Shown: one piece after another, positions 4,471-53,409 of the stretch
How positions within the stretch are numbered: the stretch's first letter is position 1
How the letters are laid out: each line of letters starts with the position of its first letter
Assembly: GCA_964460855.1 (NCBI GenBank)
Contig: CAYWQH010000002.1
Location: 71,506 to 135,505 of the forward strand
Length of the DNA stretch: 64,000 nucleotides
DNA from: an uncultured Candidatus Saccharibacteria bacterium
Lineage (GTDB): Bacteria > Patescibacteriota > Saccharimonadia > Saccharimonadales > UBA10212
Reading direction: 5' to 3'
Program-made: the position numbers and the translations under genes
The notes under the pieces: generated by a model
Databases searched by the model: none
Seen by the model: only the letters and a program-made list of their open reading frames with translations
Told to the model about the DNA's origin: nothing

Positions 4471-5646
4471 TTGAAAACCAGAATTGCTATTAATGGTTTT
4501 GGGCGCATCGGCCGCAATGCTTTTAAGATTGCGTTTGAGCGGACTGACCTCGAAATTGTTGCTATCAATGACTTAACCGATACTAAAACGCTGGCCCATT
4601 TGCTTAAACACGACAGCAATTATGGCGGCTATAACCATGACGTCGGCCACGACGACCAAAATATAATTGTCGGCGGCCAGCATATCAGGGTATTGGCCGA
4701 AAAAGACCCGGCCGCATTGCCGTGGCGCGATATGAATATAGATGTAGTGGTGGAATGTACCGGCCTATTCGTTGACCCGGCCAAAGCCAAAGTCCATATC
4801 GACGCCGGCGCCAAAAAAGTAATTATCAGCGCCCCAGCTAAAGGCGAAGGCGCGACTACAATTGTATTGGGCGTCAACGAAGACAAGCTCGAAACGGCCG
4901 GCGATATTATCAGTAACGCCAGCTGTACGACAAACTGTATAACACCTGTGGCTGCCATAATCGAAAACAATTTTGGTATCGATAAAGCAATGATGACTAC
5001 AGTACATAGCTACACTGCCAGCCAGCGCCTGCAAGACGCGCCGGCCAAAGATTTGCGCGAAGCCCGTAACGCCGCTGAAAATATAGTTCCAACCACTACT
5101 GGCGCCAGCATTGCCGCCGCCCAGGCGTTTCCAGCCTTGCAAGGCATATTCGGGGGCCTGTCTATCCGCGTCCCCACGCCGGTAGTTTCGCTGGCCGATT
5201 TTGTATTCATAACCAAACAGCCGGTTACAGTAGATTCAGTTAACGAAGTATTCAAAAAAGCCGCCGCCGAACCGTTTTTCCAGGGCATTTTAGCCGTAGC
5301 TGAAGAACCATTGGTCAGCAGCGATTTTATCGGCAACAGCCACTCGGCAATCGTTGACCTGAAATTGACAGCCACGGTTGGCGACAACATGTTAAAAGTT
5401 GTGGCTTGGTACGACAATGAATGGGGCTATAGCAACCGGCTAGTAGAAGTCACAGCCGATGTCGGCAAGCTATTAAATAAAGACCAGCCGCCCGCCCAGG
5501 CGCCTATAAGCCAGCCCGAAGAGCATTACGACTTGGGGCACGAGAACCAACCCTTACAGCCGGCCTCTGACCAGCCCGCCGAGCACCAGCCAGATACACA
5601 GCCGGAATTCCATCCCGAACAGCAGCCTGACCAACACCACATGTAA
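4471..5646 (+). CDS. gap: type I glyceraldehyde-3-phosphate dehydrogenase with Q/P/E/H-rich C-terminal tail
   Basis: 391 aa with a TTG start 7 nt after GGGAG. It has INGFGRIGR, the active site SCTTNC and WYDNEWGYSNR. About 54 extra low-complexity residues follow the canonical end. Confidence 0.92.
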   Translation: MKTRIAINGFGRIGRNAFKIAFERTDLEIVAINDLTDTKTLAHLLKHDSNYGGYNHDVGHDDQNIIVGGQHIRVLAEKDPAALPWRDMNIDVVVECTGLFVDPAKAKVHIDAGAKKVIISAPAKGEGATTIVLGVNEDKLETAGDIISNASCTTNCITPVAAIIENNFGIDKAMMTTVHSYTASQRLQDAPAKDLREARNAAENIVPTTTGASIAAAQAFPALQGIFGGLSIRVPTPVVSLADFVFITKQPVTVDSVNEVFKKAAAEPFFQGILAVAEEPLVSSDFIGNSHSAIVDLKLTATVGDNMLKVVAWYDNEWGYSNRLVEVTADVGKLLNKDQPPAQAPISQPEEHYDLGHENQPLQPASDQPAEHQPDTQPEFHPEQQPDQHHM

Positions 5647-12360: not shown

Positions 12361-13371
12361 ATGGCAGAAATCCACAAGCAGTTAGATGTTTTGTCGGTCG
12401 GCGATGTCGTTACCGATGCCTTTATAAAATTAATCGATGACCAAGCGCACATCGAAAATCATGACGGCTCCCAAAACATTTGCATGCCTTTTGGCATGAA
12501 AATCCCTTACGACCACGCCGAAGTATTGGAAGGCGTCGGCAACGCTGCTAACGCGGCCGTATCTTTCGCCAGGCTGGGGCTGCGCTCCGGACTGGTAAGC
12601 AACATCGGTGAAGACGACTGGGGCCGCGATATCGTTAAAAGCTTAAGCAAAAACCACGTCGATACCCGTTTTGTCCACGCCAACCCCGGTATGAAAAGCA
12701 ATTACCACTATGTGCTCTGGTACAAAGACGAGCGCACTATATTGATCAAGCACGAAACTTATGACTACCACTGGCCGCGCTTCCGGTCCAATGATATTCC
12801 AAAATGGGTTTACTTCAGTTCCATAAGCAAGAACGCCATGGGATACCACGACCAAATTGCCGACTGGTTAGAAGAACATCCTGACGTAAAACTGGCTTTC
12901 CAGCCCGGTACCTTCCAAATGGAAGCCGGCACCGAGCGTCTCAAACGTTTATACCAGCGGACAGAAGTATTGGCTTTAAACCGCGAAGAAGCGGTAATTG
13001 TCAGCCACGGCGACTATGGCAACTTGCACGACCTGTTCGACCGGCTGCACGCTCTGGGCCCCAAAATCGTGGTAATTAGCGACGGCCCCCACGGCGCTTA
13101 TGCCAGCGACGGCACTAACCGTTATAAAATGCCCAATTACCCGGATCCGGCACCGCCTAAAGAGCGTACCGGCGCTGGCGACGCTTTTACCTCGACTTTT
13201 GTAGCTGCGTTAATTAAAGGCGCTGATCTTCAGGGCGCGTTGCTTTGGGCGCCAATCAACCCGATGAATGTCGTCCAAAAAGTCGGCGCCCAAGCCGGTT
13301 TACTAGACCAAAAAGAAATCGACCATTATTTAAGAACAGCTCCGGAATGGTACCACCCGGAAAAAATATAA
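12361..13371 (+). CDS. PfkB-family carbohydrate kinase
   Basis: 336 aa with an N-terminal VGDVVTD, GNAANAA and the C-terminal GAGDAFTS anion-hole/ATP motif. It is adjacent to fba, so it could act as a phosphofructokinase (inference). Confidence 0.8.
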   Translation: MAEIHKQLDVLSVGDVVTDAFIKLIDDQAHIENHDGSQNICMPFGMKIPYDHAEVLEGVGNAANAAVSFARLGLRSGLVSNIGEDDWGRDIVKSLSKNHVDTRFVHANPGMKSNYHYVLWYKDERTILIKHETYDYHWPRFRSNDIPKWVYFSSISKNAMGYHDQIADWLEEHPDVKLAFQPGTFQMEAGTERLKRLYQRTEVLALNREEAVIVSHGDYGNLHDLFDRLHALGPKIVVISDGPHGAYASDGTNRYKMPNYPDPAPPKERTGAGDAFTSTFVAALIKGADLQGALLWAPINPMNVVQKVGAQAGLLDQKEIDHYLRTAPEWYHPEKI

Positions 13372-35321: not shown

Positions 35322-35348
35322 TTGGCACTCGTTGCATGTGAGTGCCAG
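35322..35348. promoter_or_regulatory. CIRCE-like inverted repeat upstream of clpC
   Basis: The sequence is TTGGCACTC-gttgcatgt-GAGTGCCAG. The 8-bp arms are perfect with a 9-nt spacer. The canonical CIRCE is TTAGCACTC-N9-GAGTGCTAA. Confidence 0.65.
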
Positions 35349-35361
35349 AACATGCTATAGT
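35332..35361 (+). promoter_or_regulatory. putative clpC promoter (TTGCAT-18-TATAGT, TG-extended -10)
   Basis: The -35 hexamer lies inside the spacer of the inverted repeat. The -10 context is aTGcTATAGT at 35353-35361, about 70 nt upstream of the start codon. Confidence 0.5.
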
Positions 35362-35429
35362 GGATTTACGGGCTTCTACCAAAAAACCCACAGATAAAAC
35401 GGCTCGGGAAAGGCAAAATTAGAACACAT

Positions 35430-37916
35430 ATGATGCCCAATTCACCAGATTTCCAAGAATTTTTAAACCATTTAACAGATAATGCGTTGCATAGCTTAAA
35501 GCACGCCGACCAAATTGCCAGGGCCGGCGGCAGCGCCTATGTAGGCACCGAGCATTTATTACTCGGACTGCTGGCCCAAGACGGCTCAATTGGCGCCAAA
35601 ATATTAGAAGGTGCCGGCGTAACATTAGACCGCGCCCGCTTAGCACTTAACCTGACCCCAAAGACCTTAGTTATCAACATCGGCGCTAAGGGTTTAAGTG
35701 AAACTGCCAAACTAACTTTAAAAATGGCTTGGGAGATCGCCCAGGAGTTTAACCAGGATATGTGCGGTACAGAGCACATCCTATATAGCATTTTGACCCA
35801 AAAGAACGCCCGCGCAACGGTTTTGCTGCGCGACATGAACATTGATGTCGACCAACTCACAAACGAGCTGGAACAGTTCTTAAACCGCCAACAATTCGAA
35901 GACAATCCCGACGGCGACCCCACCAAGTCACTTCGCCGCAAATCCAAAAGCGGCAAAAAAACGGCCGTAGAATTCTTCGGCACCGATTTAACCGATTTGG
36001 CCAAGCAGGGGAAGCTAGACCCGGTAGTGGGCCGCGAAGCCCAGATTAAAAGGGTGGTTACCATATTAAACCGCCGCACTAAAAACAACCCGGTATTAAT
36101 TGGCGAACCCGGCGTCGGTAAAACAGCTATCGTAGAAGGCCTGGCCCAGCGCATCATTAACGAAGAAGTGCCGGACAGCCTGCTTGATAAGCGGATTATC
36201 ATGCTCGACCTGGCCGGCATGATCGCCGGTACCAAATACCGCGGCGAGTTCGAAGACCGTCTTAAAAAAGTTATGAGCGAGTTGGAAGGCGACAAGAGCA
36301 CAATTGTCTTTATAGACGAGCTGCATTTAATTGTTGGAGCCGGCGCAGCCGAAGGCTCGATGGACGCCGGCAATATGCTCAAGCCAGCCTTAGCCCGCGG
36401 CAAGATCCAGTTAATCGGCGCCACAACTACCGACGAATATACCAAATATATCGAAAAAGACGCCGCCCTGGAACGCCGTTTCCAACCGGTTCAGGTCCCT
36501 GAAACTACCGTTCCCGAAACAGTTTCTATACTAAAAGGCCTGCGCAAGTATTACGAGGAGTTCCACGGCGTAGACATTAGCGACGAAGTAATACAAGACA
36601 CTTCATACTTCGCCAAGCGCTACATTAATGACCGCTACATGCCCGACAAGGCAATTGATTTGCTGGACGAAACCGCTGCCCACCTGCGGGTCGACAAAGG
36701 CAAAACGCCGCCGGAAGTCCGCAAACTCCAGAAAGAACTTAAATTAATTAATACCCGCATCGAAGATGCCGTCGATAACGAAGACTACGAACGGGCCGCC
36801 CGCGAAAAGCAGCGCGCCAGCCAGATTAACGACCAACTGACTAAATTGCAAGCTAGCTATAAAAATGAGCAAAAACTCACCATGACCAGCGAGGATGTCG
36901 CCGAAACTGTCGCCCGGACCACCGGCGTGCCGGTAACCCGCGTCATCCGCAGCGAGGCCAAATATTTGGTTAACCTCGAAAAGAACTTAGAAAAGCATGT
37001 GATAGGCCAGCGCGAAGCCGTAGAAACCGTGGCCAAAGCTGTCCGCCGTTCGCGCTCCGGCATTGCCAGTGAGAAACGGCCGATCGGCTCTTTTATATTC
37101 CTTGGCCCAACCGGCGTCGGTAAAACCGAACTGGCTAGGGTGCTAGCTAAAGAATTCTTTGGCAGCGAAGAAGCGCTGGTTAAAATTGATATGAGCGAAT
37201 TCGGCGAGCACCATAATGTTAGCCGGTTAGTCGGCGCGCCCGCCGGTTACGTCGGTTACGACGACGGCGGCCAGCTTACTGACAAAATCCGCCGCCAGCC
37301 ATATAGCGTCGTGTTGTTTGACGAAATCGAAAAAGCCCACCCCGACGTATTCAACATGCTGCTGCAGCTGCTGGAAGACGGCAAAATAACCGACGCCAAA
37401 GGCCGGCCCATCGACTTCACCAATACGATAGTGATAATGACCAGCAATTTAGGCGCCGAAAAGCTGCAAAAAGAAGCCAGCTTTGGTTTCAGCGCGGTTA
37501 AGGCGTCTGATTTTGAAAACCTTGATGAGCTGCACGAAGCCAATAAAAACAAAGTCTTAGACGAGCTTAAGCGCATGATGCGCCCGGAAATGCTCAACCG
37601 CATAGATAAGATAGTAGTGTTCCGTGCCCTGACTAAAAAAGACGTTCTAAAAATCCTTGACTTGCAGATCGCCGATTTGCGCGGCCGTCTAGTTAAACGG
37701 GGTGTCGGCCTAAGCATTACGCCTTCCGCTAAAAATTTCCTGGTTGATAAAGGATACGATGCTAAAAACGGTGCCCGTCCAATGCGCCGCTTGCTGCAAG
37801 ATACCTTGGAAGACCACATTGCCAGCGGCTTGATTGAAGAATCTTATGAGCGCGGGGATATGGTAAGCGTTACGACTAAAAATAACGAGCTCAATTACGT
37901 TAAATCGGCCGAATAA
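35430..37916 (+). CDS. clpC: ATP-dependent Clp protease ATP-binding subunit ClpC (class I AAA+)
   Basis: 828 aa with duplicated Clp_N repeats, two AAA+ modules (GEPGVGKT, GPTGVGKT) and a middle UVR-like segment (EDYERAAREKQRA). Confidence 0.9.
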   Translation: MMPNSPDFQEFLNHLTDNALHSLKHADQIARAGGSAYVGTEHLLLGLLAQDGSIGAKILEGAGVTLDRARLALNLTPKTLVINIGAKGLSETAKLTLKMAWEIAQEFNQDMCGTEHILYSILTQKNARATVLLRDMNIDVDQLTNELEQFLNRQQFEDNPDGDPTKSLRRKSKSGKKTAVEFFGTDLTDLAKQGKLDPVVGREAQIKRVVTILNRRTKNNPVLIGEPGVGKTAIVEGLAQRIINEEVPDSLLDKRIIMLDLAGMIAGTKYRGEFEDRLKKVMSELEGDKSTIVFIDELHLIVGAGAAEGSMDAGNMLKPALARGKIQLIGATTTDEYTKYIEKDAALERRFQPVQVPETTVPETVSILKGLRKYYEEFHGVDISDEVIQDTSYFAKRYINDRYMPDKAIDLLDETAAHLRVDKGKTPPEVRKLQKELKLINTRIEDAVDNEDYERAAREKQRASQINDQLTKLQASYKNEQKLTMTSEDVAETVARTTGVPVTRVIRSEAKYLVNLEKNLEKHVIGQREAVETVAKAVRRSRSGIASEKRPIGSFIFLGPTGVGKTELARVLAKEFFGSEEALVKIDMSEFGEHHNVSRLVGAPAGYVGYDDGGQLTDKIRRQPYSVVLFDEIEKAHPDVFNMLLQLLEDGKITDAKGRPIDFTNTIVIMTSNLGAEKLQKEASFGFSAVKASDFENLDELHEANKNKVLDELKRMMRPEMLNRIDKIVVFRALTKKDVLKILDLQIADLRGRLVKRGVGLSITPSAKNFLVDKGYDAKNGARPMRRLLQDTLEDHIASGLIEESYERGDMVSVTTKNNELNYVKSAE

Positions 37917-50439: not shown

Positions 50440-51720
50440 ATGAAAGTGAGCCGAGAAGCTAAAAGCGATACTTTAGTATTGCTTAATATCCAAGCGGAGC
50501 AATCTGAACTGGACGAAATTAAACAGCATGTACTGCGCCGTTTGGCGCCCGGCATTAAAGCGCCGGGCTTCCGGCCGGGCAAAGCGCCGCTGAATATAGT
50601 CGAAAAACAAGTTGGCCCCCAGGTGATGCAGCAGGAATTCCTGGATGACGCGGCTAATGCGCTGTACAACCGGGCTATTAAAAACGAACGGCTTCGGCCG
50701 GTTGGCAACCCGACAGTCAATTTAAAAAAATTCGTACCGTTTACGGCTTTAGAAATGGAAGTCGAAGTTGAGGCTATCGGTAAAATCGACTTGCCGAATT
50801 ATAAAGACCTGAAAGTAGAAAAGCCGGTTGCTCAAGTTACTGCCGCCGATGTAAACGACGTAATCGAAAACCTGCGCGTCCGGATGGCCGAAAAACAAGA
50901 AGTGGAGCGGGCCGCAAAAAAGGGCGACGAAGTATGGATCGATTTTGAAGGTAAAGACAGCCAGGGCAAACCGGTAAGCGGCGCTTCCGGTAAAGACTAT
51001 CCGCTGCTGCTGGGCAGCAATACATTTATACCCGGGTTTGAAGACAATTTAATAGGCGTTAAAAAAGGCGACAAAAAAACATTTAAACTCAATTTCCCTA
51101 AAGACTATGGGTTGCAGGCATTGCAGGGCAAAGAAGTAACTTTTGAGGCCGAAGCCGTGAAAGTGCAAGAGCTTAATAAACCGGCCGCCGATGATGCCCT
51201 TGCCGCCAAAGCCGGACCTTTTAAAACACTGGCCGAGCTTAAAAAAGACGTCAAACAACAGCTTACGAGCGAGCGGCAGAACCAAGCCAAGCAGGCTTAC
51301 GATAACGCCCTGGTAAAAGCCCTGGCCGACAATACCGTAGTAACCATCCCGGACAGTTTGGTCGAAGACCAGGTTTTGCATATGGAAGAAGAAGAAAAGC
51401 GCAACCTGGTTTACCGCGGCCAGACCTGGCAGGAGCACCTGGATATGGAAGGCATCAACGAAGAGGAACACCGGGCCCGCCATAAACCGGACGCCGTATT
51501 GCGGGTCAAAGCCGGCCTGGCATTAAGCGAAATTGCCGAGCTTGAGAAAATATTCGTAACGCCCGAAGAACTGGAAATCCGCCTTGACGCGTTAAGGCAG
51601 CAATATAGCGACCCGCAAATGCAAGCCGAGCTTGCCAAGCCCGAAAACCAGCGGGAAATTACGAATCAGCTTATGACTGAGAAAACAATTAATCGGCTAG
51701 TCGAGCTCAACGCGCATTAA
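50440..51720 (+). CDS. tig: trigger factor
   Basis: 426 aa with a ribosome-binding N-domain (GFRPGKAP), an FKBP-type PPIase middle domain and a C-terminal helical arm domain. Confidence 0.9.
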   Translation: MKVSREAKSDTLVLLNIQAEQSELDEIKQHVLRRLAPGIKAPGFRPGKAPLNIVEKQVGPQVMQQEFLDDAANALYNRAIKNERLRPVGNPTVNLKKFVPFTALEMEVEVEAIGKIDLPNYKDLKVEKPVAQVTAADVNDVIENLRVRMAEKQEVERAAKKGDEVWIDFEGKDSQGKPVSGASGKDYPLLLGSNTFIPGFEDNLIGVKKGDKKTFKLNFPKDYGLQALQGKEVTFEAEAVKVQELNKPAADDALAAKAGPFKTLAELKKDVKQQLTSERQNQAKQAYDNALVKALADNTVVTIPDSLVEDQVLHMEEEEKRNLVYRGQTWQEHLDMEGINEEEHRARHKPDAVLRVKAGLALSEIAELEKIFVTPEELEIRLDALRQQYSDPQMQAELAKPENQREITNQLMTEKTINRLVELNAH

Positions 51721-52089
51721 TGGCTCCGCGTCAGGCTCAACAGTAGATTGGGGATTAGGTTCTGCTCCGGTCTCAGGCGACGACGGATAAGCAATCTCGT
51801 GAGTTCTCCAGACTGCGCCAAGCCCATGGCCTAAACCTTTTACTGCCAATCCGCCGCTAACCAGTGCTGTTCCGATATATATCCGTGGATCAGCGGGCAC
51901 AGTTTCAATCATCAAAGTAGTACTAGCAAATAAAGAACCAGCAGCTGCTAATGCGCGATAACTTTTGCGGAAAGAATTTAGCGCATTCTCGTTTAGTTCA
52001 ATATCAGGATAATGATTGCGGGCATGTCTAAAAGCTTCTCTTTCGGCAAACCTGTCGATCTTCCCGCTAATCCTGCCAATTGGTTGCAT
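51697..52089 (-). CDS. hypothetical small membrane protein
   Basis: The start is taken at ATG 52089, preceded on the minus strand by TTGATA-17-TATTTT. The GTG at 52143 would start inside the clpP operator. Two hydrophobic segments are present. Its 3' end overlaps tig convergently by 24 nt. Confidence 0.45.
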   Translation of the reverse strand: MQPIGRISGKIDRFAEREAFRHARNHYPDIELNENALNSFRKSYRALAAAGSLFASTTLMIETVPADPRIYIGTALVSGGLAVKGLGHGLGAVWRTHEIAYPSSPETGAEPNPQSTVEPDAEPLMRVELD

Positions 52090-52136
52090 AATTAGGCTAA
52101 AAATACCATAAAAGGTATATTTTATCAACCCCGTTG

Positions 52137-52163
52137 CTGGCACTCTTGACGTGCGAGTGCCAA
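52137..52163. promoter_or_regulatory. CIRCE-like inverted repeat upstream of clpP
   Basis: The sequence is CTGGCACTC-ttgacgtgc-GAGTGCCAA. It has the same 8-bp arms and the same 9-nt spacer length as the clpC site. Confidence 0.65.
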
Positions 52164-52175
52164 TTAAAGTAAACT
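52146..52175 (+). promoter_or_regulatory. putative clpP promoter (TTGACG-18-TAAACT), -10 ends 6 nt before ATG
   Basis: The -35 hexamer occupies the first six spacer positions of the inverted repeat. The geometry matches the clpC promoter. Confidence 0.55.
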
Positions 52176-52181
52176 AGATGT

Positions 52182-52760
52182 ATGGTTATACCAACGGTTA
52201 TAGAACAAGAAGGCCGCTTCGAAAGGGTGTATGACATATACAGCCGTTTGCTGCGCGACCGCATCATCTTTTTAGGCACGGACGTAAACGAACAAACGGC
52301 TAATGCCATCGTTGCCCAGATGTTATTCCTCGAAAACCAGGACCCGGACAAAGATATAGTTTTTTACATTAACAGCCCTGGCGGCAGCGTATATGACGGC
52401 ATGGGCATTTACGACACAATGCAATTTATTAAATGCGATATCCAAACGGTTGGCATTGGCTTACAGGCTAGCATGGGAGCCGTGCTTTTGAGCTCCGGCA
52501 CCAAGGGCAAACGGTTGCTGCTGCCTAACAGCAAAGTTATGATTCACCAGCCTAGCGGCGGCGCCCAAGGCAAAATCAGCGATTTAGAAATTACGCTTCG
52601 AGAATCACTGCGGGTAAAAGAAAAAATCAATCAAATCTTAGCCAAAAACACCGGCCAGACCATCAAGAAAATCGAAGTTGATGTCGACCGCGATTACTGG
52701 ATGGACGCCAAAGAAGCCAAAGCGTATGGTTTGATCGATAAAATCCTGGACAAACGCTAA
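52182..52760 (+). CDS. clpP: ATP-dependent Clp protease proteolytic subunit
   Basis: 192 aa with RIIFLG, the catalytic Ser in QASMGA, His in MIHQP and Asp in RD(Y)WM. Confidence 0.93.
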
Positions 52761-52779: not shown

Positions 52780-53409
52780 ATGAGTGAGAAACGTACGCGT
52801 CTACCGCTACACATCGAACGATTCGAAGGGCCCCAGCCAGAAAAAAAGACCTTGGAAATTGCCCGTCGGCTTAGCCACGTATTGGGCGTGAGTTGGAGCA
52901 ATTTATTGGAACGTGAGCTCAAGGCGCTAGAAAATGGAACGGTTCGCCGTGAGCTGTTTGATGAAACCAACGAAGAACTTGTCAGGGCCAGACAAATAAA
53001 TGTTATTGAATCGCTGGGCCATCGGGCCGTTTATTATTTTGCCTGGTTCAATCAACAGGATTGGGGAATGGCCAAAACCACACCGTCTTACCCAAATAAA
53101 GTGCTTAAGGTAGTTGGCGCGCCGGCTAATTGCTACTTTGGATCTCTTGATTCAATTATCGCCAATATGCAAGTTGGCAGCCAGCTGTTCCAGGCCGCTT
53201 CGGCACCTTTTAAAGACGGCAAGCTAGCGGTAACCGATGTATTTAATTATCCGGAAAGCAGCACTTACCAGGCAGCATTGCACGCCGGCTTCGAACCGGT
53301 ATTACCGCAACCCGCCGATCTTGTTTTTCGCATAGGTGAATACAAATTACCGCAAATCAGGATGTCCGCCGAAATCGGCCAAATACGCGCCAGTATTAAA
53401 AGATCGTAA
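52780..53409 (+). CDS. hypothetical protein
   Basis: 209 aa with ordinary composition and no motif I recognise. TGaTAATAT ends 6 nt before the ATG. Confidence 0.55.
   Translation: MSEKRTRLPLHIERFEGPQPEKKTLEIARRLSHVLGVSWSNLLERELKALENGTVRRELFDETNEELVRARQINVIESLGHRAVYYFAWFNQQDWGMAKTTPSYPNKVLKVVGAPANCYFGSLDSIIANMQVGSQLFQAASAPFKDGKLAVTDVFNYPESSTYQAALHAGFEPVLPQPADLVFRIGEYKLPQIRMSAEIGQIRASIKRS

Follow-up and report, generated by a model that had tools for sequence, protein, structure and literature searches.

The closest described relative of the arrangement reported here is the CIRCE/HrcA heat-shock regulon of the Bacillus subtilis type, which Zuber and Schumann reportedly set out in 1994. Canonical HrcA is a protein of about 340 aa, and in Bacillus its targets are the dnaK and groE operons only, clpP and clpC belonging there to the CtsR regulon. 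In the Actinobacteria the comparable factor is ClgR, an activator and not a repressor. Both CtsR (in the Firmicutes) and ClgR resemble the present case in placing clpP and clpC under a single stress-responsive factor, and differ from it in their operators, CtsR recognising a direct heptad repeat and ClgR a palindrome other than CIRCE. The consensus of the CIRCE operator is TTAGCACTC-N9-GAGTGCTAA (PMC545781, PMC6305308), and inactivation of Bacillus HrcA works through titration of GroEL (Mogk et al. 1997, as summarised in PMC7737663). The HrcA regulon of Mycoplasma pneumoniae comprises dnaK, dnaJ, groEL/ES, clpB, lon, pepA and pip (PMC7737663), and clpP of Streptococcus salivarius is reported to be under both CtsR and HrcA (Chastanet and Msadek 2003, as cited in PMC3842655 and PMC6305308).

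CIRCE and HrcA are themselves textbook material, and what is new here is their location and build in the Saccharibacteria. In the 64-kb stretch of DNA that was analysed (hereafter the window), an inverted repeat, CTGGCACTC-ttgacgtgc-GAGTGCCAA, precedes clpP at 52137-52163, its left arm CTGGCACTC occupying 52137-52145, its 9-nt spacer TTGACGTGC 52146-52154 and its right arm GAGTGCCAA 52155-52163. The first six bases of the spacer are a plus-strand -35 box, TTGACG (52146-52151), followed after 18 nt by a -10 box, TAAACT (52170-52175), which lies at an offset of +30 from the start of the CIRCE core, and six nucleotides (AGATGT) separate this box from the ATG at 52182. The initial annotation of the locus had described these arms, the 9-nt spacer, both promoter boxes, the 18-nt gap and the 6 nt to the ATG, and all of them read as it described them; the promoter was also found independently by a consensus promoter scan (TTGACG-18-TAAACT, 9 of 12 matches). 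The clpP coding sequence (52182-52760, plus strand) specifies 192 aa, with PF00574 matched on an identical product. Since a TAA lies in frame at codon 52170-52172, the clpP frame cannot begin upstream of 52173, and the ATG at 52182 yields the conserved ClpP N-terminus MVIPTVIEQ.

The second copy, TTGGCACTC-gttgcatgt-GAGTGCCAG, is found at 35322-35348, 82 nt before clpC (35430-37916, plus strand), which encodes an 828-aa protein with Clp_N and two AAA domains. The initial annotation had credited the two sites with the same spacer and with identical promoter geometry, and this holds for the arms and for the spacer length of 9 nt; the clpC spacer, GTTGCATGT, is of different sequence, and the register and strength of the -35 differ as well. 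The clpC promoter (35332-35361, plus strand) consists of a weak -35 box, TTGCAT (35332-35337), and, after 18 nt, an extended -10, TGCTATAGT (35353-35361); the TTGCAT begins at spacer position 2 instead of position 1 and matches TTGACA at three of six bases only, which is why the promoter scan does not call it. Transcription of clpC is predicted to start near 35368, giving a leader of about 62 nt.

The repeat was left unnamed when it was first read, its identity as CIRCE going unrecorded. Both window sites have a perfect 6+6 core, GCACTC-N9-GAGTGC, and match the CIRCE consensus at 15 of 18 positions, departing from it in having G for A at arm position 3 and, in mirror fashion, C for T. The same arms, cTgGCACTC-N9-GAGTGCcAA, are listed as the CIRCE of Desulfovibrio vulgaris groESL (PMC545781, Table 8), and among the matches listed in our metagenome scan (below) a G at arm position 3 is present in 12, and the mirror C in 14, of 75 independent sites. 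When the 64 kb was scanned for GGCACTC-N9-GAGTGCC with up to two mismatches, and 100 shuffles served as control, there were two matches, at clpP and at clpC, against 0.14 expected, and no shuffle reached two (0/100). This agrees with the earlier assertion that the pair is hard to ascribe to chance. Relaxing the core to three mismatches gave no further copies above chance within the window, and a search of the window for the CtsR box, RGTCAAAnanRGTCAAA, returned three matches at three mismatches where five were expected, none of them near clpP or clpC.

Comparison of clpP upstream regions among relatives had been proposed as a check on the operator, and here the arms are present throughout. The window is of saccharibacterial origin. 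The closest relatives of the window ClpP and ClpC belong to metagenome-assembled genomes of Candidatus Saccharibacteria/Saccharimonadales, among which the gene order hisS-tig-clpP-rpoB is kept. CIRCE stands directly upstream of clpP in all 13 Saccharibacteria loci compared (ClpP 65-74% identical), with a perfect core in 11 and one mismatch in two; across the clpP promoters 166 of 168 CIRCE core cells are conserved, and the flanking intergenic sequence is unalignable. It is the sequence of the arms that has been kept and not mere pairing. All 14 Saccharibacteria clpP promoters carry TTGAC inside the spacer (in one of them as TTGAA), in one of two registers, CTC-TTGACnnnn-GAG or CTC-nnnnTTGAC-GAG. 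The same scan applied to non-Saccharibacteria clpP loci found the CIRCE core in none of 65 within 400 nt upstream, and nowhere in 697 kb. For clpC, five relatives picked by protein similarity only (L214, L215, L341, L342 and L343; ClpC 78-83% identical) all have a perfect-core CIRCE upstream of the gene, with TTGAC at spacer position 1, and a spacer of 9 nt is found at the two window sites and in every relative. The TGn of the extended -10 is likewise shared by the clpC promoters of relatives. Set against this family design, the window clpC site, with its -35 degenerate and shifted by 1 nt (gTTGCAT), looks like a slightly decayed version. In its sequence and spacer, in its context and in its conservation, the inverted repeat before clpP is a genuine CIRCE, the HrcA operator.

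The spacing between -10 box and start codon bears on how clpP would be transcribed and translated. The initial annotation had read the transcript as leaderless or near-leaderless, and indirect support for this comes from the 12 of 13 clpP relatives in which 6-9 nt separate the end of the -10 box from the first in-frame ATG; the start site predicted from this spacing is most likely the A of ATG 52182, or a position within 1-2 nt of it, which would make the mRNA leaderless. The sole relative with a long leader (L005) has a Shine-Dalgarno motif, and the window clpP has none. Among the metagenome matches listed, many hrcA genes start at +41 to +45. Nor is the pattern confined to the clp and heat-shock genes. 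Across the gene starts of the window -10 boxes peak at -12, and of 50 window genes 12 have a near-consensus TATAAT that begins at -14 to -12, other positions having about one each; examples are tig (50440), hisS (49109), recG (45518) and radA (38950), and a Shine-Dalgarno motif precedes only about 13 of the 50. Many transcripts of this genome appear to lack a leader, and a leaderless mRNA for clpP seems both well supported by comparison and ordinary for the genome in which it occurs. Our literature search found no paper on leaderless mRNAs in the Saccharibacteria group.

How far the design extends beyond the two clp genes was addressed by scanning metagenomes for GCACTCTTGACNNNNGAGTGC, which was found at 80 loci at least, 75 sites being analysed; these loci were selected by pattern, so that all counts drawn from them show where the design occurs and not how often genes carry it. 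Flanks that were no part of the scan pattern recur all the same (TTA in 55 and TAA in 50 of the 75 sites among the matches listed), which argues that the metagenome sites are true CIRCE. Measured from the core start, TAnnnT has a sharp maximum at +29/+30 (57 of the 75 listed sites), 17-18 nt past the embedded -35. Among the matches listed, the genes following the design include about 20 short hrcA-like genes (217-245 aa), about 19 dnaK, 10 clpC (nine of them 69-81% identical to the window ClpC and one more distant), four clpP, three or four groES/groEL, four hsp20, one dnaJ and a few others. The initial annotation had argued for a real co-regulated clpC/clpP unit. The shared operator stands, and the notion of a unit private to the two genes does not, for the same operator serves a larger predicted HrcA regulon that includes hrcA-grpE-dnaK, groES and hsp20. 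Judged by their operators, clpP and clpC belong to a predicted HrcA regulon that spans the lineage and into which the genes of the Clp protease have been drawn.

None of hrcA, groEL and dnaK lies in the window, and the presence of the regulator is known at the level of the lineage. Two metagenome loci (L337 and L339) have the order hrcA-grpE-dnaK-...-dnaJ, headed by the same operator, and one of them has gmk upstream, as in Southlakia epibionticum, where SEML1_0720 (PF01628 and PF03444, fold match 1stz) lies between gmk and grpE-dnaK according to the supplement of PMC10633639. Saccharibacteria HrcA proteins are about 235 aa long (for example L217, L276, L285, L291, L294, L337 and L339), some 100 aa below the canonical length. 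They match PF01628 and PF03444 above the curated Pfam cut-offs, and the winged helix aligns with residues 16-94 of Thermotoga maritima HrcA (1STZ) at E = 7e-18. The best 120 database relatives are all of 212-257 aa; those named by NCBI are from Candidatus Saccharibacteria or Patescibacteria, and the JGI label is heat-inducible transcriptional repressor. The Pfam HrcA_C match covers profile positions 73-215 only, and the ECOD labels given in PMC10633639 name domains A1 and A3 of 1stz and not A2; on account of this coverage and these labels, the inserted dimerising domain is probably missing from the Saccharibacteria protein. A structure prediction from 30 close homologues had a pLDDT of 41, too poor to check the loss of the domain. 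By gene content and operator placement, the lineage has the regulator and a putatively autoregulated core operon, and its clpP and clpC carry the operator of that operon.

In proposing a mechanism, we need to account for an operator whose spacer contains the promoter's own -35 box. We think it highly probable that the CIRCE at 52137-52163 is bound by HrcA, that occlusion of the -35 represses clpP, that stress relieves this repression and that the transcript starts leaderless. An HrcA dimer would bind the clpP CIRCE and, with the -35 box inside the 9-nt spacer, would cover it and exclude RNA polymerase. Repression would operate on DNA, at initiation; the predicted start being downstream of the repeat, an RNA hairpin would play no part. 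If events run as in Bacillus subtilis, the accumulation of unfolded proteins would titrate GroEL away and HrcA would lose its activity, whereupon clpP and clpC would be derepressed together with hrcA-grpE-dnaK, groES and hsp20. Two features of the lineage qualify this outline. The short HrcA seemingly lacks its dimerising domain, so that dimerisation and the dependence on GroEL may differ from the Bacillus case; and at the window clpC, where the -35 is weak and stands 1 nt out of the register seen in relatives, occlusion is less clear-cut.

Other explanations of the repeat have to be set against these observations. The classical B. subtilis arrangement is itself the precedent for supposing that CIRCE is real but that the promoter lies upstream, the element then standing in a 5' leader as a roadblock and/or an mRNA-destabilising hairpin, with clpP not leaderless at all; the clpP repeat could indeed fold, as a single strand, into a hairpin of 8 bp (-7.6 kcal/mol, z = -2.9), the two repeats offering 8-9 bp. 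Yet there is no plus-strand promoter-like site in 51600-52136, and the spacer TTGAC and the -10 at +29/+30 are kept in 14 clpP promoters, as well as in the 57 of 75 listed metagenome sites, a degree of conservation that would be pointless unless these boxes are the clpP promoter. The ATG, moreover, is fixed 6-9 nt past the -10 box, and we judge an upstream promoter improbable. It is a little less probable still that in this lineage a CIRCE-like site has passed to another regulator. The want of hrcA within the 64-kb window and the truncation of the lineage's HrcA could be read in that way, but the same operator precedes hrcA, dnaK, groES and hsp20 in the lineage, a pattern characteristic of an HrcA regulon under its own control, and between the short HrcA and that of T. 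maritima the winged helix is well conserved. To our knowledge, no CIRCE-binding protein other than HrcA has been described.

The ability to form a hairpin more stable than shuffled sequence might also suggest an RNA or DNA structure with some other role, such as a terminator of the upstream gene or a generic repeated element, and the position of the clpC repeat, which begins 15 nt past the nusA stop codon, would suit a terminator. We regard this as very unlikely: neither copy is followed by a T-run (the sequences after the two repeats are TTAAAGTAAACT and AACATGCTATAG), the terminator scan found no terminator-like site at either, the nearest same-strand gene upstream of the clpP copy ends 416 nt away, and the arm sequence is conserved beyond what pairing would require. 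A generic repeat scattered without regard to promoters had been named in the initial annotation as the outcome that would count against an operator; what we find is two window copies, none added by looser matching, both at clp promoters, with the copies elsewhere standing before proteostasis genes. That the two sites are a chance pair of functionless palindromes has their short length alone to recommend it and is barely credible, for none of the 100 shuffles held two matches, and conservation in 13 of 13 clpP and five of five clpC orthologous promoters refutes it.

The reading that we prefer, of CIRCE as an HrcA operator enclosing the -35 box of clpP, can now be placed beside the described systems. 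It shares with B. subtilis the inverted repeat, the 9-nt spacer and, at the level of the lineage, the autoregulated hrcA-grpE-dnaK operon and the groES target. It differs in three ways: CIRCE is found on clpP and clpC; the repeat, which in Bacillus lies in the transcribed leader downstream of the promoter, here has the -35 inside its spacer and is predicted to be untranscribed; and HrcA is of about 235 aa, against about 340 aa for the Bacillus type. M. pneumoniae is similar in combining a reduced genome with a single HrcA over both chaperones and proteases, and its order tig-CIRCE-lon parallels the tig-CIRCE-clpP seen here; its protease targets, however, are Lon and peptidases, and HrcA control of clpP or clpC is unreported there (PMC7737663). 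S. salivarius clpP is a reported precedent for HrcA control, but one exercised jointly with CtsR, whereas CIRCE is the sole recognisable operator here and the window has no CtsR box.

The genome-reduced mycoplasmas (Lon, ClpB) and the one streptococcal clpP are the closest precedents that we found for what is proposed here, namely that one repressor governs both the chaperones and the protease arm (clpP, clpC). In the main texts covered by our literature search HrcA was not linked with Saccharibacteria, Patescibacteria or TM7, and the TM7x transcriptome supplements do not mention hrcA. The proposal thus offers a concrete and testable regulatory circuit for an ultrasmall episymbiont lineage in which gene regulation is almost uncharacterised. 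We lean, with some reserve, towards a broader generalisation: that a truncated HrcA of about 235 aa, keeping the winged helix and the sensor domain without the inserted dimerising domain, may be the sole master regulator of the entire network of proteostasis genes in Saccharibacteria, and perhaps in the wider Candidate Phyla Radiation. Its targets would be dnaK, groES/EL, hsp20 and dnaJ together with clpP and clpC, it would replace the CtsR, ClgR or sigma-32 circuits, and it would act through a fixed cassette with the -35 in the CIRCE spacer, the -10 at +30 and, in many cases, a leaderless start near +42. Such a cassette of operator, promoter and leaderless start would be a ready-made stress-inducible promoter for new Saccharibacteria genetic systems, and its motif could improve the annotation of start codons and promoters in Saccharibacteria genomes.

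Two open reading frames flank the clpP operator and gene. Downstream, 20 nt past the clpP stop, is a plus-strand ORF of 209 aa (52780-53409) with no Pfam match, which is absent from the 13 Saccharibacteria relatives, where rpoB directly follows clpP. No terminator-like site was found between clpP, this ORF and rpoB in the window, and the ORF may be read through from the putatively HrcA-controlled clpP promoter. Upstream, a divergent minus-strand ORF of 130 aa (51697-52089), read from ATG 52089, overlaps the 3' end of tig by 24 nt; its longer reading, from GTG 52143, would be of 148 aa and overlaps the left arm of CIRCE. A promoter-like site before it (TTGATA-17-TATTTT, 52128 to 52100) would give a near-leaderless start if used. 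This ORF has no Pfam match and no counterpart in the 13 relatives, which makes it doubtful that it is a gene. The earlier suggestion that it starts at 52089 is probable if it is one, and the calls in other assemblies agree, the ORF being called at 130 aa on three Logan contigs.

Several further observations concern the neighbourhood and distribution of the operator. In some relatives a small ORF (126-212 aa) with no Pfam match lies between nusA and clpC (L214 9413-9811, L215 9582-9962, L341 1983-2621); the window lacks it, and in those relatives CIRCE stands 3' of the ORF, directly before clpC. Most dnaK promoters of the design carry a second, tandem CIRCE right after the -10 (L219, L246, L250, L253, L266, L296 and others), as do some hrcA promoters (L261, L273, L339). 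The same CIRCE-promoter design also precedes genes for a Zn_ribbon_8 protein (PF09723; L242, L275) and for Zincin_1 (PF06262; L232), a zincin-like metallopeptidase, and the zinc-ribbon protein and the metallopeptidase are possible extra members of the HrcA regulon. Scans of viral contigs for CIRCE and for both embedded -35 registers returned Firmicutes-like hsp20/clpB sites and chance matches only; a -35 inside the spacer occurs at Firmicutes-like hsp20 and clpB sites too, and this feature is therefore not unique to Saccharibacteria. Canonical CIRCE is found on more than 120 contigs classed as viral (IMG/VR, loci L084-L163), one of which (L158) has three copies 49 nt apart at 5425-5547, and another (L104) one copy at each contig end, at 20-44 and 13002-13026.
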